A stretch of 40,638 nucleotides of DNA from a virus (lineage: Duplodnaviria > Heunggongvirae > Uroviricota > Caudoviricetes), in IMG/VR virus record IMGVR_UViG_2778261641_000011. One strand, written 5' to 3'. Position 1 is the first letter of the stretch. Each line of letters opens with the position of its first letter. The notes below the pieces were generated by a model. That model was given only the letters and a program-made list of their open reading frames with translations. It was not told the DNA's origin and did not search any database. The position numbers and the translations under genes are program-made. Below are positions 542 through 39,615 of this stretch, one piece after another.

Positions 542-1579
542 TTAACGCTTATCCGCCACCAGTTTGAGCGCGTGTTCCAGCACATTAATGTCTGCACCCG
601 CTTTATGGGCATTTTCACTTAAATAACGCCGCCACTGCCGCGCGCCAGGAATACCCTGGAACAAGCCCAACATATGCCGGGTAATATGGCCGAGATACGT
701 CCCCTGGCTGAGTTCACGCTCAATGTACGGATACATGGCGCGCACTACCGCCACCGGATCGGCATCGGTATCCGAGGAACCAAAGATCTCCCGGTCTACT
801 GCCGCCAGAATACCCGGATTCTGATACGCCTCGCGCCCGACCATCACGCCATCCATATGTTGCAGGTGTGCTTTGGCCTCTTCCAGCGACTTGATACCAC
901 CGTTAATCGACATTGTCAGATGCGGAAAGTCACGCTTCAGTTGATACACACGCGGATAATCGAGCGGCGGGATTTCACGGTTTTCTTTCGGGCTTAACCC
1001 CGAAAGCCAGGCTTTACGTGCGTGGATGATAAACATCTCACACTCGCCTTTGCCGGAAACAGTGTTGATGAAATCGCAGAGAAATTCATAGCTGTCCTGG
1101 TCATCGATGCCAATACGCGTTTTCACCGTCACTGGAATCGACACCACATCGCGCATCGCTTTCACACAGTCGGCAACCAGCTGCGCATTACCCATCAGAC
1201 ACGCACCAAACATGCCGTTCTGCACCCGGTCAGACGGGCAGCCGACATTCAGGTTGATCTCATCATATCCACGCGCTTCTGCCAGCTTCGCACACTGTGC
1301 CAGCGCCGCCGGATCGCTACCGCCGAGTTGCAACGCTACCGGATGTTCTTCTTCACTGTACGCCAGGTAATCACCTTTACCGTGAATAATCGCCCCTGTG
1401 GTCACCATTTCGGTATACAGCAACGTATTGCGGGAAAGCAGACGCAAGAAATAGCGGCAATGTCTGTCCGTCCAGTCGAGCATAGGAGCAATGCTAAACC
1501 GAGAATTCCAGTAAACACCAGTTTTTTCAGGCATCACGCTGGTTTGATTAATTTTTTGTGTTTCATGATTATCGTGCAT
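542..1579 (-). CDS. dusA: tRNA-dihydrouridine synthase A; N-terminal ~32 codons are prophage-supplied
   Basis: 345-aa ORF with TIM-barrel Dus motifs ([13 protein letters not shown], catalytic Cys region). The 5' end (1484-1579) lies inside the prophage-derived att repeat. Alternative start at the downstream MPEKTG Met is possible. Confidence 0.88.
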
Positions 1580-1667: not shown

Positions 1668-2765
1668 ATGGCGTACTATAACATAGAGAAACGACTAAAA
1701 TCCGATGGCACACCACGCTATCGCTGTAATGTGATTATCAAAGAAAAAGGTGTTATCACTTACAGGGAAAGCAAAACATTCCCTAAACATGCTCATGCCA
1801 AAACATGGGGCACACAGAAAGTGATGGAATTAGATCTATATGGCATTCCATCATCAAATGCAGTTGACGGACTTACAGTCCGTGACTTACTACACAAATA
1901 TTTAAATGACCCAAATGCCGGAGGTAAAGCAGGCCGTACTAAAAGATATGTGCTGGAACTGCTTATGGATAGTGACATCTCCGCGATCAAACTATCTGAA
2001 CTGACAGAAAATGACGTAATTGAACATTGCAGGCTAAGAAACAACGCTGGCGCAGGTCCAGCAACAGTCAGCCACGATGTTAGTTATCTTGGCAGTGTTC
2101 TGGATGCGGCCAAACCTGTATACGGAATTAATTACACATCAAACCCGGCGAAAAGTGCTCGTCCATATCTACTTAAACTTGGTTTGATTGGTAAATCAAA
2201 CCGTCGTAATCGTAGACCAGCATCTGATGAACTGGACATGCTCATTGAAGGCCTTCAACAACGATCTACTCATAAATGCTCAAAAATTCCGTTCGTTGAT
2301 ATCCTCAAATTTTCTGTGTGGTCCTGTATGCGAATCGGAGAAGTATGCCGGTTACGATGGGAAGATCTCGACCAGGAACAAAAATCTATACTCGTAAGAG
2401 ACAGGAAAGATCCACGCAAAAAGGAAGGCAACCACATGAAAGTAGCCTTGCTTGGGGAAGCCTGGGATATCGTCCAACGACAGCCCAAAAAATCGGAATT
2501 CATTTTTCCATATAACAGCACTTCTATTACTGCGGGATTTCAGAGGGTAAGAAGCAAATTAGGTATTAAGGATCTGCGATACCATGATTTGCGTAGAGAA
2601 GGGGCAAGTCGCTTATTTGAGGCTGGTTTTAGTATTGAGGAAGTAGCCCAGGTTACAGGGCATCGTTCATTAAACGTGCTATGGCAGGTATATACCGAAC
2701 TGTATCCGAAATCTTTACATAATCGTTTTGAAGAGCTCCAAAGGAGCAGAAATAAGACCCCTTGA
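1668..2765 (+). CDS. Tyrosine recombinase / site-specific integrase of the dusA-targeting type
   Basis: 365-aa ORF directly adjacent to attL. C-terminal catalytic region has the HxxR ... Y signature (HDLRREGASRLFEAG...LWQVYTELY). SD acgagg lies upstream of the ATG. Confidence 0.9.
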   Translation: MAYYNIEKRLKSDGTPRYRCNVIIKEKGVITYRESKTFPKHAHAKTWGTQKVMELDLYGIPSSNAVDGLTVRDLLHKYLNDPNAGGKAGRTKRYVLELLMDSDISAIKLSELTENDVIEHCRLRNNAGAGPATVSHDVSYLGSVLDAAKPVYGINYTSNPAKSARPYLLKLGLIGKSNRRNRRPASDELDMLIEGLQQRSTHKCSKIPFVDILKFSVWSCMRIGEVCRLRWEDLDQEQKSILVRDRKDPRKKEGNHMKVALLGEAWDIVQRQPKKSEFIFPYNSTSITAGFQRVRSKLGIKDLRYHDLRREGASRLFEAGFSIEEVAQVTGHRSLNVLWQVYTELYPKSLHNRFEELQRSRNKTP

Positions 2766-2826: not shown

Positions 2827-3075
2827 ATGCGTATTGAAATCTGCATAGCCAAAGAAAAAATGACTAAAATGCCAACCGGTGCTGTGGATGCGTTAAAGGA
2901 AGAATTAACCCGACGCATCAGTAAACGTTATGACGATGTAGAGGTGATCGTAAAAGCCACCAGCAACGATGGCCTTTCTGTTACACGCACCGCAGATAAG
3001 GATTCTGCAAAAACTTTTGTTCAGGAGACTCTGAAAGATACCTGGGAATCTGCTGACGAGTGGTTTGTTCACTAA
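2827..3075 (+). CDS. dinI: DinI-family damage-inducible protein
   Basis: 82-aa product [11 protein letters not shown]...[16 protein letters not shown] closely resembles E. coli DinI (MRIEVTIAK ... QETWESADDWFV). LexA boxes lie upstream. Confidence 0.85.
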
Positions 3076-3140
3076 TTAACACGTAAAATCGGTAACGGCT
3101 GGAAATCATTCAATAATCGCACTATCGAAAGTTCGCCAGC

Positions 3141-3180
3141 CAGCCGCAGCACGTTCTTGCATACGACGTGGCTGCGGCTT
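3141..3180. terminator. Hairpin between convergent dinI-like and invertase genes (putative bidirectional terminator)
   Basis: Imperfect inverted repeat cagccgcagcacgt ... acgtggctgcggct. No strong U-tract, so weak. Confidence 0.3.
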
Positions 3181-3218
3181 CCAACATTAGACAAATAACT
3201 CTTTAAATTGCTTTTAAA

Positions 3219-3782
3219 TTATTTCGTTTGAATGCCAGTAACAGGAAATCGTTTATATAGGGTTGATAGCCCAACGTTATAGATACGTGCAACATAACGC
3301 CGTGATTTCCCTGCCGCTATGAGCGCTCCCATCTGTTGCCACTGCTCGTCGCTAAACTTCGGTCTACGCCCACCAATCCGGCCTTTGGATCTGGCAATAG
3401 CCAAACCAGCTAAAGTTCGCTCGCTATTCAAATCAGATTCATACTGCGCAGCAGAAAGAATATTACGGAAATTATAGCGACCACTTGCTGTTTTCAGGTC
3501 TACGCCATCTGTAATACTCCGAAAATTAACACCTTTTTCGTGCAGATTTTGAAACATCAATAGCGCATGCAGCACATTTCTCCCTATCCGATCTAACTTC
3601 CAGACAATCAACTCATCTCCACTTTTCATCACCGTAATTAATTCCTTTAACACAGGGCGATTAGCTGTTCTGCCACTGGCATATTCTTCATAAATTCGCT
3701 CACAGCCAGCTGACTCAAGTGCAAGACGTTGCAACTCTGTATCCTGATGATTTGTTGATACACGAACATACCCGTAAATCAT
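3219..3782 (-). CDS. Serine recombinase, DNA invertase of the Gin/Hin/Pin/Cin family
   Basis: 187 aa, MIYGYVRVSTNHQDTELQR...VWKLDRIGRN...GRIGGRRPK...STLYKRF, near colinear with Hin/Gin. Catalytic Ser in the RVST motif; C-terminal HTH. Confidence 0.9.
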   Translation of the reverse strand: MIYGYVRVSTNHQDTELQRLALESAGCERIYEEYASGRTANRPVLKELITVMKSGDELIVWKLDRIGRNVLHALLMFQNLHEKGVNFRSITDGVDLKTASGRYNFRNILSAAQYESDLNSERTLAGLAIARSKGRIGGRRPKFSDEQWQQMGALIAAGKSRRYVARIYNVGLSTLYKRFPVTGIQTK

Positions 3783-4203
3783 GAGTGCTTCTCCTGTTGT
3801 AAAAACAGGAGAAGAGGCGAAATATCACCTGATTCAGAAAAATATTTCAAAGGTTGGTTTGGGAGAAGCGGCAAAACGGAATGTGGGAACAGGGGAAAAT
3901 CAGATACCAGATATGTCTGCATTTCCATCTGGCAAAAACTGGTTTCAGTTACCAAGTGGTCATATTGTCCAAATGTTTTCGATGAATGTTTATGGGGCGG
4001 ACACTAACGGAACTACAGGTAATTTCCCTATTGCATTTCCTTCAGGCGCACTGGCTGTTAGTGCCTTATGGTCAGATGGCACATTAACGGCTGCTCCGAC
4101 CTTTAAACTTATGGGGTACACGACAACAAGGACATCAGTAACCTTAAAAGTATCAACCGGAAATGGTTTGTATGGAACTATGATTATCGCAATAGGAAGA
4201 TAA
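3781..4203 (+). CDS. Alternative tail-fibre C-terminal variable segment (Sv'-like); silent in this orientation
   Basis: ORF in frame across the crossover site, sharing the GLGE codons with the expressed tail fibre. No independent RBS; only the part from ~3857 would be expressed after inversion. Confidence 0.5.
   Translation: MSASPVVKTGEEAKYHLIQKNISKVGLGEAAKRNVGTGENQIPDMSAFPSGKNWFQLPSGHIVQMFSMNVYGADTNGTTGNFPIAFPSGALAVSALWSDGTLTAAPTFKLMGYTTTRTSVTLKVSTGNGLYGTMIIAIGR
3843..3868. other. hix/gix-like 26-bp inversion crossover site (invertase-proximal)
   Basis: atatttcaaaggTTggtttgggagaa. Its reverse complement begins ttctcccaaaccaa, identical over 14-15 bp to the site at 5704-5718. Confidence 0.6.
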
Positions 4204-4204
4204 T

Positions 4205-4648
4205 ATGAATCAATATATTTATTCCCCTTCGGAAAATGCTTTTTATGCTGTTAATTTAAAAAATACTTATGAAGCAAATGGAACATGGCCCGCTGATGCA
4301 TTAGATATTCCTGATGACATTTCTGTAAAATATATGGCGGAACCGCCACAAGGGAAAATCCGAGTTGCAGGGGAACATGGTTTTCCCACATGGGCTGAAA
4401 TACCTCCACCATCACATGAGGAACTTATTGAACAGGCCGAATCAGAGAGGCAATTATTGATTAACCATGCCAACGAATACATGAACAGTAAACAATGGCC
4501 CGGTAAAGCAGCTATTGGTCGTCTGAAAGGTGAGGAACTGGTGCAATATAATTTGTGGCTGGATTATCTGGACGCACTGGAACTGGTCGATATTTCCAGT
4601 GCTCCAGATATTGAATGGCCTACGCCTCCGGCAGTTCAGGCCAGATGA
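4205..4648 (+). CDS. Alternative tail fibre assembly chaperone (U'-like)
   Basis: 147 aa with the typical Tfa N-terminus MNQYIYSPSENAFY and C-terminal region. Convergent with the active Tfa gene, as in the Mu G segment. Confidence 0.7.
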   Translation: MNQYIYSPSENAFYAVNLKNTYEANGTWPADALDIPDDISVKYMAEPPQGKIRVAGEHGFPTWAEIPPPSHEELIEQAESERQLLINHANEYMNSKQWPGKAAIGRLKGEELVQYNLWLDYLDALELVDISSAPDIEWPTPPAVQAR

Positions 4649-5225
4649 CATCCGGTGCGGTGCTGGTATCTGTTGCCGTCACCGCGTCAATGTAATCCAG
4701 CGCAGCGTTAAGTTGGGCGGTTTCTGCCTGCGTCAGATTCCGTCCGGCCTGCAATTTCAGTTGAATCAGACTGATGGAAGCCATTGCTGCATCAATCAGT
4801 GACTGGCGCTGTGCTTCTGCCGCTTCTACTGCGGCACCGTGTTGTGCCTCAGTATCGGTCACCCATTTCTCACCATCCCATTTATCGTATGGCGTTAATG
4901 GGGCGATAATGGTTGTATTTTCAGGGTAATCACCCGGAGCTGTGATTTCTTTGGTATCTCCCGTTTCGGTACTATAGACAACTTCACCGCGATGGTCTGG
5001 CACATATTCCCATGAGTTTAAATCTACAGAACGACAAATTGCATAACCAGCTTTGTTTGAGCCCGGAGCATCTAAACAAGAACATGCCGGGATACCGACG
5101 CCGACAGCGAGATATTCAGTTGATGTAGAAATATATTCCCGCGTTTCACCATCATAATTATAAATGATAATGTCTCCCGCTTTTATGGCAATGAGTTTGC
5201 TATTTAATACAGCTTTATTCATCAT
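4620..5225 (-). CDS. Tail fibre assembly chaperone (U-like, active orientation)
   Basis: 201 aa; ATGA overlap with the tail-fibre stop. C-terminal Tfa-type sequence (DYIDAV...WPELP). Confidence 0.75.
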
Positions 5226-6007
5226 GCGGCCCTCACAATATAATTAAAGGCGATGTTACGTGGACGATTTTCATTTGCTGTTGGAACAACATTTGCCGCC
5301 GAGAAGTGAACATCTTGTCGGATTTTTCGGTCATTAGCGTATGTCATAGACACATTGATGTTATTCCGGACTGAGGTACCTCCGTAAAAAGCTCCACTCA
5401 CACTTTGAACATCGACAATTGCATTAATTTCGCTGTTTACGCGCAACTGACCAAAACCGCCAGTAATGTTTCGAATAGCATCTCCTTGCGATGAAAGCAG
5501 AGTTCGCCCACTATCCACACCACGTTCATCATCCCAGCCACGAATAAACTCACCGCGTAAATCAGGCAATTTATTTGTCGGGTAAGACTTTGCCAGTTCC
5601 GGGTATTCTTCAGCAGAAAAAGCCGCACCATTGCATTTCAGCCAGCCTGTTGGTGGAGTGGCTGAAGGCCACGGAACAGGCACACCAACGGGTAATGCCG
5701 AACCTTCTCCCAAACCAAGGTTTTCGAGAGCCGTTTTCACCGTGCCATCCGATTTGATATCGCCAAACGGATTCTTGCGGCTTAACAGCAGCGCACGAAG
5801 CGCGGTAAGCAGTTGGTCGTGCCGCGCCTTCTCCAGACTGGCACCGGATGCCTCCACCACGCTGCAGAGTTCTTCCTGCAACATGTCAAAGTAGTCATCA
5901 TCCAGATCGGTGGCAGGCGTGCCTGTCTGGGGGTTACCACGGGTAAAACCGTTCTTACCCGCGCCGAACTTATCCTTCTGCGCGGTTTTCGTGTCTATAC
6001 GATGCAT
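5222..6007 (-). CDS. Tail fibre protein: constant N-terminal part fused to the currently selected variable C-terminus
   Basis: 261 aa with N-terminus [21 protein letters not shown] typical of phage side tail fibres. The crossover site lies in frame at codons ~93-101. Confidence 0.8.
5705..5730. other. hix/gix-like 26-bp inversion crossover site inside the tail fibre gene
   Basis: ttctcccaaaccAAggttttcgagag; compare hixL TTCTTGAAAACCAAGGTTTTTGATAA. Encodes LENLGLGEG in the tail-fibre frame. Confidence 0.65.
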
Positions 6008-6010
6008 GGA

Positions 6011-6595
6011 TTACTCCGGATATTTAAAAATTACGTAGGTATGCGACGGGCAGAGTTTGTTAAGCACACACTCGACAACGGTGTCGCCCCAGATACGCAG
6101 CGCGGAATCACAGGGATCGCCACATGTCATCCAGGTGGTGTTGGTGGCGGCTGGCATGTTGACCTGCCAGTAATACCGCCATTCCGGCGCATTCACAGCG
6201 TCAGTACAGGCCGATGAGCAGGTGAACGTGCTTTTGTCGTATCGCGTGATGGTGGCATCTGGTCTGCCCAGGGCAGCAAGCTGTGCAAGATAAAAATCCT
6301 CGTTGATGCCGCCCGCCAGGTTAACCTTCGCATCCAGCCGTTGCTGACGCTGGCGAAGGGTCTGTGTCCCTGCGGGAATACATTCATCCGGCAGGCCACA
6401 CAGACGCTCCCAGCGATTTATCAGCTCGGTGGTGGTGCGCGGATCAAGCTCCCGCATCAGGGCATCCGCACGCTGATGAACACGGGTTAATGAAGGTGCC
6501 GCACCGGCAATCGCCGGATCGCTGGCTGACCATGCAGGACCGGGCGGCAACAGTGCCGATAACAGGCGGATGTAATCATCGTTTGTCACGTCCAT
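6011..6595 (-). CDS. Tail protein, Mu gp48-like (DUF2313)
   Basis: 194 aa; Cys-rich C-terminus. Position between baseplate J and tail fibre matches Mu gene order. Confidence 0.7.
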
Positions 6596-11098: not shown

Positions 11099-11593
11099 CT
11101 ATCTGAGTTGAACATCAATGGAATAAATATTACCACTCTTTATAAATTTAGAATCTGTCCTTTCATCAAAAGATTCAAATGACTGTACCTTTAAAAACTT
11201 TTTCATTTTATTTTCAAAAATACTTTCATTAACACCAGTTAAATACTTGAACGCTCTACCAGCAAGGACCTCATTACTTAAATCCATTGTGTTTTTATTG
11301 TCTTTGAAAAACCAAACAATAACCTTTTGTGGGCATGATGGATTATAAACAGATATATAAAACTGCGGCTCATATTTTTCATCAGCGTCATCACTAAGCA
11401 TTTCTTCAGAAGATAATTCTCTTCTGAATTCATATTGCCGCTTAGTTATTCCTTCATCCTTTATTATCTCTTGCTTAACTGGTGCAATACCTATAGAAGA
11501 GATTAATTCTGACTCATTAAAGCTGAACTTACACTCTTCCGCAGCCAAGTTAAAAGATAAAAGTGCAGATATAAAAAAAACAAAGATACGCAT
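11099..11593 (-). CDS. Moron: secreted or periplasmic protein of unknown function
   Basis: AT-rich island inside a GC-rich tail operon. Likely start is the internal Met (MRIFVFFISALLSFNLA-AEE, signal peptide with an AXA-type site). Promoter-like TATAAT upstream and a terminator downstream. Confidence 0.6.
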   Translation of the reverse strand: MRIFVFFISALLSFNLAAEECKFSFNESELISSIGIAPVKQEIIKDEGITKRQYEFRRELSSEEMLSDDADEKYEPQFYISVYNPSCPQKVIVWFFKDNKNTMDLSNEVLAGRAFKYLTGVNESIFENKMKKFLKVQSFESFDERTDSKFIKSGNIYSIDVQLR

Positions 11594-11692
11594 AATCATC
11601 CCTTCAATCATTTGTAAGGAATGATTATATTAACTACTTAAAGCTGAAAACCCAAATTATGCCAGACAAAAACACATTAATCATTTTGTACA

Positions 11693-25190: not shown

Positions 25191-26243
25191 TTATTTCCCC
25201 ACCAGTTCACTTACCTCTTTCACCGTCTGATTAAACCGCTCTGACTCAAGTTCAACACCTAACGCCCGACGCCCCAGCGCCATTGCCGCTTTTATTGTGG
25301 AACCGGATCCCATAAAGAAATCAGCAACCAGATCGCCTTGTCGACTACTGGCACTGATTATTTGCCGGAGCATATCCGCAGGCTTCTCACACGGATGTTT
25401 ACCCGGGTAGAACTGAACGGGTTTATGCGTCCAGACGTCGGTATAAGGCACGGAGACTGATACGGAGAAATAGCGCCGGAGAGATTTAAACTCATCCAGC
25501 AATTCAGAATATTTGCGATTCAGTGAATCATAAGATGCCACCAGCTGGTGGTGTGGTTGTTCCAGTTGTTGTTCCTGAAACTTCTCTGCCGCTATACGGG
25601 AAAACAGTGCCTGTAACTTCCGATAGTCAGCCTCATTCGGCAACTGCCACTGACTGGCACCAAACCAGTGGGAAACCATATTTTTCTTACCTGTGGCTTC
25701 GGCAATTTGTTTTGCCGTTATACCCAGTTCGGCACGAGCATCCCTGAAATACGATATCAGCGGTGCCATTATGTGCTGTTTGAGTTCCCTTTCTTTTGCC
25801 GCATAGCCGTCACTTTTGCCGCGATATGGCCCCTGGTAATGTTCAGCAAACAGAACGCGCTCTGTGGCAGGAAAATATGCGCGCAGACTTTCTTTATTAC
25901 ACCCATTCCAACGTCCGGACGGCTTCGCCCAGATGATATGGTTAAGCACGTTGAAACGTTCACGCATCATGATCTCAATATCAGATGCCAGGCGATGCCC
26001 ACAGAACAGGTAAAGGCTTCCGTCAGGTTTTAACACCCGCCAGAACTGGGCCAGACAGTGGTCCAGCCACTTAAGGTAATCTTCGTCCCCTTTCCACTGA
26101 TTGTCCCAACCGTTAGGTTTCACCTTGAAGTAAGGCGGATCGGTAACAATCAGGTCAATGGAATCATCAGGCAGGGACTGAATAAAATGCAGGCAATCAG
26201 CGTTGATTAAATCAACACTGTTTATTTTTACAGTATTTTTCAT
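25191..26243 (-). CDS. Orphan DNA methyltransferase (N6-adenine or N4-cytosine, beta class)
   Basis: 350 aa with motif IV TDPPY near the N-terminus and AdoMet motif I FFMGSGST near the C-terminus. No restriction endonuclease gene nearby. Confidence 0.85.
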   Translation of the reverse strand: MKNTVKINSVDLINADCLHFIQSLPDDSIDLIVTDPPYFKVKPNGWDNQWKGDEDYLKWLDHCLAQFWRVLKPDGSLYLFCGHRLASDIEIMMRERFNVLNHIIWAKPSGRWNGCNKESLRAYFPATERVLFAEHYQGPYRGKSDGYAAKERELKQHIMAPLISYFRDARAELGITAKQIAEATGKKNMVSHWFGASQWQLPNEADYRKLQALFSRIAAEKFQEQQLEQPHHQLVASYDSLNRKYSELLDEFKSLRRYFSVSVSVPYTDVWTHKPVQFYPGKHPCEKPADMLRQIISASSRQGDLVADFFMGSGSTIKAAMALGRRALGVELESERFNQTVKEVSELVGK

Positions 26244-26849: not shown

Positions 26850-27632
26850 TTATCTTGTCACCTTTCTCAATTGTATCTCTGCATATGCTTCTTCCTGCCA
26901 GCACTTTGTAACCAGTTTATCAATGACATCTGCATATCCTTTGTACCACTGATAATCCGTCAGGTCTGGTACCAGCTTCTGGACATGATGCCGCGCCAGT
27001 GTGGTTGGTAAACGGCTAAACCGGTTTCCATTGCAACGCCCACAAATCTTATAAACAGGCGTGCCATGAAGCCGGGTCCTTTTTTCATCCAGGACAATAC
27101 CTTTACCCTTACACCCTCTGCACGCTGTGCTGACTTCTCCCTTACCATGACAATGCTGACATAGTTCCTTCACCCACTCTTCCTTGATAACAGATTCCCC
27201 GCTTCTGGAGTGTTTCACCACTTCGCGCAATACATTATGAAATCCAGTACCAGCACAATGCTCACAGCGAGCCTTACTTGCCGCAGACCTGGAATAATCA
27301 GCAAAGGCAAAATTCACAAGGTAAGGGATGATCTGTAACCGGGTTTCTTCACTCAATTTGTTCAATGTCGGGTTATCCAGTGCCATCGCGTAATTGAGCA
27401 GACCTTCAATCGCAAATTGAGGATCCTGAACACCAACTTTTGCCAGGAATAAGGCAAACCCAAGCGGTGCTTTCGACTGCACCATCCCCTGCGCAGCCAT
27501 CACATCCGTAATCGTTAAACCACCTGAGCCTGTCGCCGGTGCGTCATCGCTCAATTTTGGAGATTTTGGGGAGTAATATTTTGGTAAGGCTTCAAGGTTC
27601 ATGCTCGTTCTCCACTTACGCCAATACGCCAA
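26850..27632 (-). CDS. Putative late-gene antiterminator (Q-like), multi-zinc-ribbon
   Basis: 260 aa with four CxxC pairs (CEHCAGTG, CQHCHGKG, CRGCKGKG, CGRC); located immediately upstream of a promoter-plus-terminator unit preceding the lysis genes. Confidence 0.55.
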   Translation of the reverse strand: MAYWRKWRTSMNLEALPKYYSPKSPKLSDDAPATGSGGLTITDVMAAQGMVQSKAPLGFALFLAKVGVQDPQFAIEGLLNYAMALDNPTLNKLSEETRLQIIPYLVNFAFADYSRSAASKARCEHCAGTGFHNVLREVVKHSRSGESVIKEEWVKELCQHCHGKGEVSTACRGCKGKGIVLDEKRTRLHGTPVYKICGRCNGNRFSRLPTTLARHHVQKLVPDLTDYQWYKGYADVIDKLVTKCWQEEAYAEIQLRKVTR

Positions 27633-33485: not shown

Positions 33486-34112
33486 ATGGAAACGGTTGGT
33501 CAGCGTATAAAAGCTCTGAGAAGGGTTACCAGAACGTCCCAGAAAGAATTGGGTAAATTTTGTGGAGTAAGTGACGTTGCTGTGGGGTACTGGGAGAAAG
33601 ACATCAATGTCCCTGGTGGGGAAGCACTTTCAAAATTAGCGAAGTTCTTCAATACGTCAATAGATTACATTCTTTATGGTGCTGAGTTTGAAGGCAAACT
33701 CGTCACAAACATGCGCAGAGTTCCTGTAATCTCGTGGGTGCAGGCTGGGCAGTTTACTGAGTGCAGGACAGCAGAAGTGTTTAGTGAAGTAGACAAGTGG
33801 GTAGATACATCATTAAAGATTGGTGATAACTCATTTGCATTGGAGGTTAAAGGCGACTCCATGACTAACCCTAATGGCCTCCCAACAATACCAGAAGGCG
33901 CAACAGTGATTGTAGATCCTGATGCAGAACCCCGGCATGGAAAAATAGTCATCGCTAGACTTGATGGAACAAACGAAGCCACAGTAAAAAAATTAGTTAT
34001 CGATGGCCCTCAAAAGTTTTTAGTGCCATTAAATCCCCGGTACCCCAACATCCCGATCAATGGTAATTGCCTCATCATTGGTGTAGTCAAAGGAGTTCAA
34101 TACGAACTCTAG
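33486..34112 (+). CDS. CI-type prophage repressor (HTH plus S24 LexA-like peptidase domain)
   Basis: 208 aa; N-terminal HTH (TSQKELGKFCGVSDVAVGYWE); Ala-Gly site (VQAGQF); Ser in GDSM and Lys in TVKKL. Confidence 0.85.
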   Translation: METVGQRIKALRRVTRTSQKELGKFCGVSDVAVGYWEKDINVPGGEALSKLAKFFNTSIDYILYGAEFEGKLVTNMRRVPVISWVQAGQFTECRTAEVFSEVDKWVDTSLKIGDNSFALEVKGDSMTNPNGLPTIPEGATVIVDPDAEPRHGKIVIARLDGTNEATVKKLVIDGPQKFLVPLNPRYPNIPINGNCLIIGVVKGVQYEL

Positions 34113-38362: not shown

Positions 38363-38467
38363 TGACATCGTTTCTTAGTAGTTTAAGCACAAAACGACTG
38401 CCATAGATGTACCTTTAAGGTAATCTGGACGGGTATCCTACAATTTGTAGACCCTTCTCGTCTATAC

Positions 38468-39004
38468 CTACTGAGCAAATTTAAGAAAGATATCCTGCAG
38501 CTCATCAATGACTGCCGACATCACATAACCGCACTGTTCCATGCGGAAACCAAAAGACTCGTAATACTGCACCAGTTCTGGTACTGGCTCTACAATGTGG
38601 ACAACTTTACATTCAACAGCTTTACAAAATATAAAAGCACTCATAAGAGTGAGTAAAACCATGCGCCCTTTCAATGGGTGAGATTCATCTTCTCTAGAAA
38701 ACCTTTCGATCATATGGATACGAAAGATGTTTTCTTCAACCCCATAAACACAAATTGCTGCTCCTGATGGTATTCCCTGAACCCGACCTTGCTGAACAAG
38801 TTTTATGCAGAACTCATACTTTTCTCTGGAGTTGCCATAGGTACTTAACGCATAGTCCCATTCAAGCTCACCATAGCCACCACACAGAATCTTGTAATCA
38901 TCATTACTGAGCGGACCAACAGCAAGAGGTAAGCCGACATGATCAATAATCAACTGGATATTGTTACGTACTGATTGACCTATCTCGTCCAGGGTAAGCA
39001 TCAT
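38468..39004 (-). CDS. Moron near attR: putative GNAT-fold acyltransferase-like protein
   Basis: 178 aa; AT-richer than the phage core; TATAAT-like -10 upstream; GNAT-like segments (QQGRVQGIPSGAA, VLLTLMSAFIFCKAVECKVVHIV). Fold assignment is tentative. Confidence 0.5.
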   Translation of the reverse strand: MMLTLDEIGQSVRNNIQLIIDHVGLPLAVGPLSNDDYKILCGGYGELEWDYALSTYGNSREKYEFCIKLVQQGRVQGIPSGAAICVYGVEENIFRIHMIERFSREDESHPLKGRMVLLTLMSAFIFCKAVECKVVHIVEPVPELVQYYESFGFRMEQCGYVMSAVIDELQDIFLKFAQ

Positions 39005-39085
39005 GGCCTCTCAAGCGGAACACTAAAAGTCGCATTATATCTCATTCTTAAGCCGCGTATGGATTACACCTTGAAATGAAAACGC

Positions 39086-39107
39086 CGGGTTCCCAATAGG
39101 CTCCCAC
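39086..39107. promoter_or_regulatory. GGTTCCC-type repeats next to attR (candidate integrase arm sites)
   Basis: ggttccc at 39088-39094 and ggctcccac at 39099-39107 match the motifs at 1613-1647. Confidence 0.35.
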
Positions 39108-39129
39108 AGAGTGTATAACTACTTGTTTT

Positions 39130-39252
39130 TCAACAACGGTACATCCTATCGAGCATTGGTGCAACGCTAAACCGACCACTCCAGTGAACGTCAGTTTTTT
39201 CAGGCATTGCGCTGGTTTGGTTGATTTTTTGCATTTCAGAATTACCGTGCAT
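39130..39252 (-). pseudogene. dusA: Displaced original 5' end of host dusA (attR), fused to phage sequence
   Basis: Encodes MHGNSEMQKINQTSAMPEKTDVHWSGRFSVAPMLD, about 75% identical to the N-terminus of the intact dusA, then diverges into RMYRC-stop at the crossover core. Confidence 0.7.
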
Positions 39253-39258
39253 TTTCAA
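39149..39258. repeat. attR: host-derived copy of the dusA 5' end
   Basis: Imperfect direct repeat of 1476-1585 sharing the tcgagcat core at 39149-39156. Confidence 0.7.
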
Positions 39259-39550
39259 ATGTAGAGATTATTTTATCGATATATCATTGGGTTATGTTAT
39301 TCAGCATCACTGTTCAGGAGGCTCAATAGCGGGGTACTATACCATAACAACAGGAAGCGCCTGTCTCATTGCAAAAGAAAATTGAGATCAAATCAAGGCA
39401 TGAAGCTCTCACGAAGTGATGGAAATAATCTTATTAGCCGTTAGCCTTGTTAAGGACAATGATAAACAATCCAGGTTCGACGATAAATAAAAAATCACAC
39501 ATTAAACTCCGGTGATATCTCTTCCTGCTAATGGCACTGATAGAAGAAAA

Positions 39551-39576
39551 AAGAACCCAATAAGTATTAGGTTCTT
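39551..39576. terminator. Hairpin terminator downstream of the flanking host ORF
   Basis: aagaacc-caataagtatta-ggttctt flanked by A/T runs. Confidence 0.4.
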
Positions 39577-39615
39577 TTATGTAATGCCTTCCATACCATC
39601 GAAGAACTTCACATA

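Follow-up and report, generated by a model that had tools for sequence, protein, structure and literature searches.

In the e14 element of Escherichia coli K-12, the repeats TTGGTTTGGGAGAAGG and CCTTCTCCCAAACCAA are the endpoints between which the P-segment is inverted by the invertases PinE and PinQ, as established by sequencing and quantitative polymerase chain reaction (PMC12529663), and clonal cultures contain coexisting e14 orientations (PMC4272514). For the invertase Hin, residues Lys47, Lys/Arg48, Lys/Arg51, Gln151, Arg154 and Leu155 contact the enhancer and Fis, and are reported to be conserved among invertases (PMC3798978). Phe105 and Met109 hold the Hin dimer in its inactive state, roughly half of the substitutions at these two positions giving Fis-independent activity, and H107Y is the classic Fis-independent mutant (PMC4513852, PMC3798978). 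Here we analyze a locus at positions 3219–6007 of a 40,638-nucleotide stretch of DNA (IMG/VR record IMGVR_UViG_2778261641_000011; the whole stretch is hereafter called the window), where a serine DNA invertase gene adjoins a segment that is bounded by inverted crossover sites and carries two alternative tail-fibre tips. We conclude that the locus is very probably a working tail-fibre inversion switch of the Pin/Gin/Cin type. A first-pass annotation of the window had likened it to the G segment of phage Mu; the logic of the switch is indeed that of the G segment, but among known systems the e14 Pin/P-segment of E. coli K-12 is closer.

The two crossover sites are 26 bp long and have the 12+2+12 layout in which hix, gix, cix and pix sites are written. 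The invertase-proximal site occupies 3842–3867, with its TT core at 3854–3855, and reads TTCTCCCAAACC AA CCTTTGAAATAT as the reverse complement; the distal site lies inside the fibre gene at 5705–5730, with its AA core at 5717–5718, and reads TTCTCCCAAACC AA GGTTTTCGAGAG. The sites are in inverted orientation and share the central AA/TT dinucleotide, which is characteristic of the family. Of the two positions proposed earlier, that of the distal site was exact, and that of the left site (3843–3868) was off by one nucleotide. In a repeat search, the top inverted repeat of the region was 3849–3868 paired with 5704–5723, within which 15 nucleotides form a perfect inverted repeat (3854–3868 and 5704–5718). 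When the region 3100–6300 was shuffled 200 times, the longest inverted repeat was 14 nucleotides and occurred once, and 15 nucleotides was never reached. The 14-mer TTCTCCCAAACCAA is confined to the two crossover sites within the 40.6-kb window, and a search of the window for further crossover sites, as in a multi-segment shufflon, returned a sole extra match at 27135 with two mismatches, which is at chance level.

Compared with e14, the distal site is identical to the site in stfP at 26 of 26 positions, and the inner half-site and core of the proximal site are likewise identical to e14; the two e14 repeats named above are present in the window at 15/16 and 16/16. In the proximal site, CCTTT opens the outer half, where GGTTT is usual. 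The distal site had also been described as close to hixL, a likeness that may hold; a text search for the hixL sequence gave nothing, and the sites were compared instead with those of e14, P1 (cix) and D108.

Between the central dinucleotides lie 1861 bp, which contain two C-termini of the fibre and a convergent pair of tfa chaperone genes, in agreement with the first-pass annotation and with support from Pfam. On the invertase side, cassette B consists of a silent fibre C-terminus (3856–4203, plus strand; 115 amino acids) with a gp53-like C-terminal domain (Pfam PF21882, 6.8e-09), and of a tail-fibre assembly chaperone, Tfa (4205–4648, plus strand; Pfam Caudo_TAP, 1.7e-32), that is 53% identical to e14 TfaP. 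In cassette A, Tfa (4620–5225, minus strand; Pfam Caudo_TAP, 1e-31) is 87.5% identical to e14 TfaE and is at present co-oriented with the fibre, whose C-terminus (5222–5716, minus strand; 164 amino acids; Pfam Collar, 7.5e-16) is approximately 60% identical to e14 StfE. This C-terminus is now in frame with the constant N-terminal fibre part (5719–6007, minus strand; 96 amino acids), which is 97.9% identical to the N-terminus of e14 StfP/YcfK. The 3′ ends of the tfa genes overlap by 29 nucleotides (4620–4648), and the overlap in e14 is also 29 nucleotides. A short inverted repeat joins 4558–4575 and 4684–4701; similar C-terminal sequences of the two Tfa proteins may underlie it.

Both crossover sites are in frame within the fibre reading frames, and the inner half-site encodes the shared residues Gly-Leu-Gly-Glu, as had been noticed from the sequence before. 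Inversion of 3856–5716 in silico joins the constant 96 codons to the 3856–4203 cassette with the reading frame kept, so that the 261-residue fibre with a collar domain (…ENLGLGE/GSALPVG…, the slash marking the junction) becomes an open 212-residue fibre with a gp53-like domain (…ENLGLGE/AAKRNVG…). Loss of frame on inversion had been named in advance as an outcome that would speak against a switch, and it does not occur. The predicted fusion of the constant N-terminus to the silent segment is likewise borne out, with the correction that the frame of the cassette starts at 3856, a start at 3857 giving stop codons. In-frame sites that swap fibre C-termini, each cassette with a Tfa of its own, are typical of the family, and here both tips and both Tfa proteins have Pfam matches.

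Both orientations of the segment are found in orthologous prophages. E. coli RSHH22 and SK6988, which are identical to each other here, and E. coli M8 carry the orthologous prophage in dusA, and the invertase protein of the RSHH22 and M8 prophages is 100% identical to that of the window. Over 9163 bp, RSHH22/SK6988 and M8 differ by one single-nucleotide polymorphism and by an exact flip between the core dinucleotides. Since near-identical sister strains differ by a clean flip, the inversion is recent. In E. coli EC2001, the same segment (97.8% identical) has the opposite orientation relative to the invertase, and cassette B is joined to a fibre gene that belongs to another tail module; the cassette B tip of the window is 100% identical to the C-terminus of this expressed EC2001 fibre. 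A 404-nucleotide probe for the predicted recombinant junction, made of the constant part and cassette B, matches contiguous annotated genes of 7 complete E. coli genomes at 98–99% identity; for the native junction, as present in the window, the number of genomes is 513.

The segment also behaves as a unit between phages. Matches in BLAST to other phages and prophages break at the cores (query positions 755 and 2619), and the G+C content steps at the distal site (about position 5700 of the window) from approximately 0.56 in the tail genes to approximately 0.43 in the invertible segment, the invertase and the integrase. The breaks and the G+C step therefore identify the segment as an exchangeable module, with cassettes exchanged between phages exactly at the crossover sites; in relatives, cassettes are swapped at the point of the distal site. 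Owing to the mosaic nature of the cassettes, complete E. coli genomes contain the 3.2-kb region in no exact copy, the best match having 93.8% identity over 93% of the length.

By the mechanism of the family, dimers of the invertase would bind both 26-bp sites and then synapse, all four strands would be cut at the central AA/TT dinucleotide through phosphoserine links, and one pair of subunits would rotate by 180° before religation. The flip would exchange the collar-domain tip and its Tfa (5222–5716 and 4620–5225) for the gp53-like tip and its Tfa (3856–4203 and 4205–4648). A population of lysogens would then release two kinds of particles that differ in their receptor-binding tips and, by analogy with described switches, probably in host range.

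The invertase gene (3219–3782, minus strand) encodes 187 amino acids with catalytic Ser9 and a C-terminal helix-turn-helix (Pfam Resolvase, 3e-36; HTH_7, 7e-12), and lies 59 nucleotides from the proximal crossover site. Among relatives of solved structure, Mu Gin is the best match (E 1e-56, residues 1–181), and in alignments the catalytic serine of Gin, Cin and Pin corresponds to Ser9, so that the earlier assignment of a Gin/Hin-family invertase beside inverted-repeat sites stands. The protein is 100% identical to the invertase of phage SKA5. The recognition helix STLYKRFP is the same in the window invertase and PinE, which fits crossover sites of the e14 (pix) type such as those described above, with their fully identical distal site, inner half-sites and core.

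The leader of the invertase gene contains a hairpin (3788–3814, minus strand) with a perfect 11-bp stem, the 3′ arm of which holds the Shine-Dalgarno sequence AGGAG, 8 nucleotides before the AUG. The fold of 3770–3830 (minus strand) has a predicted energy of −23 kcal/mol (z −4.85), and five relatives belonging to other genera have the same stem without any change. As judged from its sequence, the hairpin may sequester the Shine-Dalgarno sequence and thereby keep translation of the invertase low. A promoter-like site for the invertase (3821–3850, minus strand) has its −35 element, TTGAAA, within the outer half-site of the proximal crossover site; the assignment is by consensus only (9/12 matches), and promoter-like sites are no commoner in the region than expected by chance.

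The only unusual point of the system, and the more interesting lead, is the clade to which the invertase belongs. As a canonical set we used eight proteins: PinE, Gin of D108, Cin, and the invertases of pro483, 500465-1, Kp4869-2, P88 and P88_4B11. These are 68–98% identical to one another, whereas the window invertase is 48–55% identical to them (49–55% to Gin, Cin and PinE), which places it outside the mutual identity of that subfamily; to PinQ/PinR it is 36% identical. The best 120 database relatives are all at least 77% identical to the window invertase, all carry generic names only, and come from Escherichia, Salmonella, Citrobacter, Klebsiella, Enterobacter, Serratia, Kluyvera and others. 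Farther members of the clade, at 65–82% identity, are found in Morganella, Erwinia, Shimwellia and Apirhabdus.

Fis sites follow the consensus KNNYRNNWNNYRNNM, and the two sites of an invertase enhancer are spaced 48 bp apart. All eight canonical genes match this consensus at 7/7 positions at nucleotides 23–37 and again at 71–85, 48 bp apart, and both places fall within the enhancer annotated in P1 at nucleotides 19–90 of cin. An unbiased scan of the canonical set singles out the same two places, and serves as a positive control for the consensus, on which the reliability of the comparison depends. At the corresponding places in the 5′ end of the window gene, the matches are 6/7 and 4/7, so that at the level of the consensus the two-site enhancer is missing there, an enhancer elsewhere being possible. 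Among 13 clade genes, not one reaches 7/7 at either place. Two mismatches at site II of the window gene are synonymous changes (GCA GGA to GCT GGC). A strict modern Fis motif (G..YA-WWWWW-TR..C) had been dropped on account of its near absence of matches even in gin and cin; the looser 15-bp consensus used instead recovered the annotated enhancer of P1 in all canonical genes.

No other conserved pair of Fis-like sites 48 bp apart stands out in the 13 clade genes. The pair at nucleotides 306/354 (at least 6/7 in 8 of the 13) was rejected as evidence of an enhancer, as it has a near-counterpart at 308/356 in the canonical genes and falls within conserved coding sequence. Conservation at synonymous sites is raised solely in codons 1–15 (0.65 versus a mean of 0.42), which is suggestive but weak, and is not raised over the equivalent of site II.

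The protein sequences differ at the positions that matter for activation of Hin. The equivalents of Hin Lys47/Arg48/Lys51 are K, K/R and K/R in the canonical proteins versus K, E and T in the window invertase, and the equivalents of Gln151/Arg154/Leu155 are Q, R and L versus Q, A and L. Positions 48, 51, 151, 154 and 155 are variable across the 120 clade proteins, whereas all eight canonical proteins keep them. In helix E (Hin 104–107, 109, 112 and 115), the canonical residues FFFH, M, L and M are replaced in the window clade by YNFR, I, A and Y. The residues at Hin positions 105, 107, 109 and 115 (N, R, I and Y) are invariant in 119 of the 120 clade relatives, and residues 101–125 of the invertase are unchanged in relatives of 65–82% overall identity.

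The comparisons of genes and proteins suggest that the clade may not use canonical Fis/enhancer activation. We tentatively propose a distinct clade of tail-fibre invertases, widespread in Enterobacterales, that act on Pin-type sites and might have given up the Fis/enhancer control that is canonical for Hin, Gin, Cin and Pin. The marks of the clade would be: (i) an invariant helix E, with YNFR..I..A..Y for FFFH..M..L..M; (ii) variable Fis-contact positions; (iii) the lack of a conserved pair of Fis sites in the 5′ coding region; and (iv) a proximal site of the form AAACC-AA-CCTTT. This proximal form (AAACC AA CCTTT) is specific to the clade; of 12 distant loci, 9 have it 53–96 nucleotides before the ATG, and 10 have it when mismatches are allowed. 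Close relatives within the clade would also share the hairpin predicted to sequester the Shine-Dalgarno sequence. If the proposal is correct, the clade is naturally enhancer-independent, or is controlled in another way, for example by limited translation of the invertase. A natural clade that is free of Fis and enhancer and acts on hix/pix-like 26-bp sites would then bear on how serine invertases are restrained, and could provide a simpler recombinase for engineering.

Two points weigh against a switch that works and is driven by its own invertase. Pin-type invertases of the host could flip the segment in trans, since PinQ and PinE both invert the e14 segment (PMC12529663); and the invertase lacks the canonical Fis/enhancer marks, so that its activity and regulation are not simply transferable from Hin or Gin. 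It is conceivable that the switch is a frozen relic whose invertase no longer flips the segment, in which case further Pin-type enzymes working in trans, or old events, would account for the orientations seen in relatives. The invertase does differ from all tested invertases at the helix-E and Fis-contact positions, and trans-acting Pin enzymes are known. Its gene is nevertheless intact, with the catalytic Ser9, and the stretch 101–125 is preserved out to the 65–82%-identity relatives. Moreover, the clade is widespread in Enterobacterales and its proximal site is conserved, which argues for purifying selection on function, and the clean flip between near-identical sister strains shows that inversion is recent. 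We therefore regard a frozen relic as very unlikely and retain the working tail-fibre switch, with the window invertase as its probable catalyst.

It is improbable, in our view, that the flip mainly serves anti-phage defence of the lysogen, with the invertase-proximal fibre fragment acting as an adsorption-blocking chimera comparable to e14 StfE2 after PinQ inversion. Inversion of the homologous e14 segment does yield StfE2, which blocks adsorption of T2 (PMC12529663), and in the window an open frame with its ATG at 3781 crosses the proximal site and continues into cassette B. However, the sole promoter-like site on the plus strand (3755–3782) would start transcription after this ATG. The segment is, furthermore, part of a complete-looking prophage, follows the baseplate genes directly and provides each tip with a chaperone, as would be expected if the fibre functions. 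Defence and host-range roles are compatible, and a defence of the StfE2 kind is possible but secondary to a tail-fibre switch.

The window is a region of the E. coli chromosome; its left flank, which contains pspG and dusA, shows 100% identity to E. coli chromosomes, and it looks as if a whole prophage is inserted in dusA. The element appears to be an intact, dusA-integrated prophage of an SfV-like temperate myovirus, and in its structural region it shares 97–98% identity with SfV, with SfII and with E. coli myoviruses, among them vB_EcoM-689R6 and SKA5. The gene order starts on the left with dusA (542–1579, minus strand), which looks intact and adjoins the gene for a tyrosine integrase (1668–2765, plus strand); a DinI-like gene (2827–3075, plus strand) lies between the integrase and the invertase, and the invertible segment is followed by a minus-strand tail operon with Mu-like baseplate genes. 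The fibre gene is the last gene of this operon, and immediately upstream of it is a YmfQ/Mu gp48-like baseplate gene (6011–6595, minus strand; Pfam Phage_Mu_Gp48) that is 98.5% identical to e14 YmfQ. The right end (about 38400–39600) appears to carry the displaced dusA fragment; other genomes annotate a tRNA-dihydrouridine synthase fragment at the matching place on the far side.

Elsewhere in the prophage, an open reading frame of 170 amino acids (11099–11611, minus strand) with a signal-peptide-like N-terminus, 32% G+C and no Pfam match lies between the tape-measure gene and a Mu gp43-like gene. It looks like an inserted accessory gene (moron), and SKA5 has an annotated hypothetical protein at the equivalent position in the gene order. 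Two further genes of the prophage encode a DNA methylase (25191–26243, minus strand; N6_N4_Mtase, 1.6e-42) and, at 33486–34112 on the plus strand, a CI-like repressor that contains an S24 peptidase domain.

The switch is of a textbook, well-understood kind, and the locus is a new instance of it, apparently the intact-phage counterpart of the e14 P-segment. The locus shows the P-segment of K-12 to be the remnant of a system that persists in complete-looking SfV-like prophages. The practical weight of the system lies in the two types of particles that lysogens would release, and flipping of the homologous e14 segment has recently been tied to defence against T2.

The likeness to e14 extends to gene order and orientation, which are as in ymfQ-stfP-tfaP-tfaE-stfE-pinE, with the invertase reading away from the segment; in its baseplate-fibre context and its crossover sites, the locus agrees with the e14 P-segment as expected of an orthologue. 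The invertases, in contrast, are 54% identical and belong to different clades, so that the window protein does not qualify as a PinE orthologue, and the fibre tips are approximately 60% identical to StfE and 31% to the StfP tip. Moreover, e14 is a defective remnant at icd, whereas the element described here is an apparently intact SfV-like myovirus at dusA.

Mu and D108 have the same plan, in which a constant Sc part is joined to one of two alternative Sv+U cassettes and the invertase lies just outside the segment, reads away from it and is about 55–60 nucleotides from the site. Their G segment is, however, about 3 kb and encodes long fibres, compared with 1.86 kb and fibres of 261 or 212 amino acids here; Gin is 49% identical to the window invertase, the D108 sites have a TC core, and Gin has the canonical enhancer and Fis-contact residues, which the window invertase lacks. 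P1 shares a serine invertase, 26-bp cix sites and an AA/TT core, and the distal site of the window matches cixR at 20 of 26 positions. In P1, unlike here, cin lies upstream and reads into the segment, and the stretch of the window gene that matches the annotated cin enhancer has lost the Fis-site consensus. The H segment of Salmonella shares the recombinase family and the 12+2+12 layout of the sites, but Hin flips a promoter, whereas the system described here flips a coding cassette. In Hin, residues Lys47, Arg48, Lys51, Phe105, His107, Met109, Arg154 and Leu155 have been shown to control Fis/enhancer activation (PMC3798978, PMC4513852); their equivalents in the window invertase are K, E, T, N, R, I, A and L.

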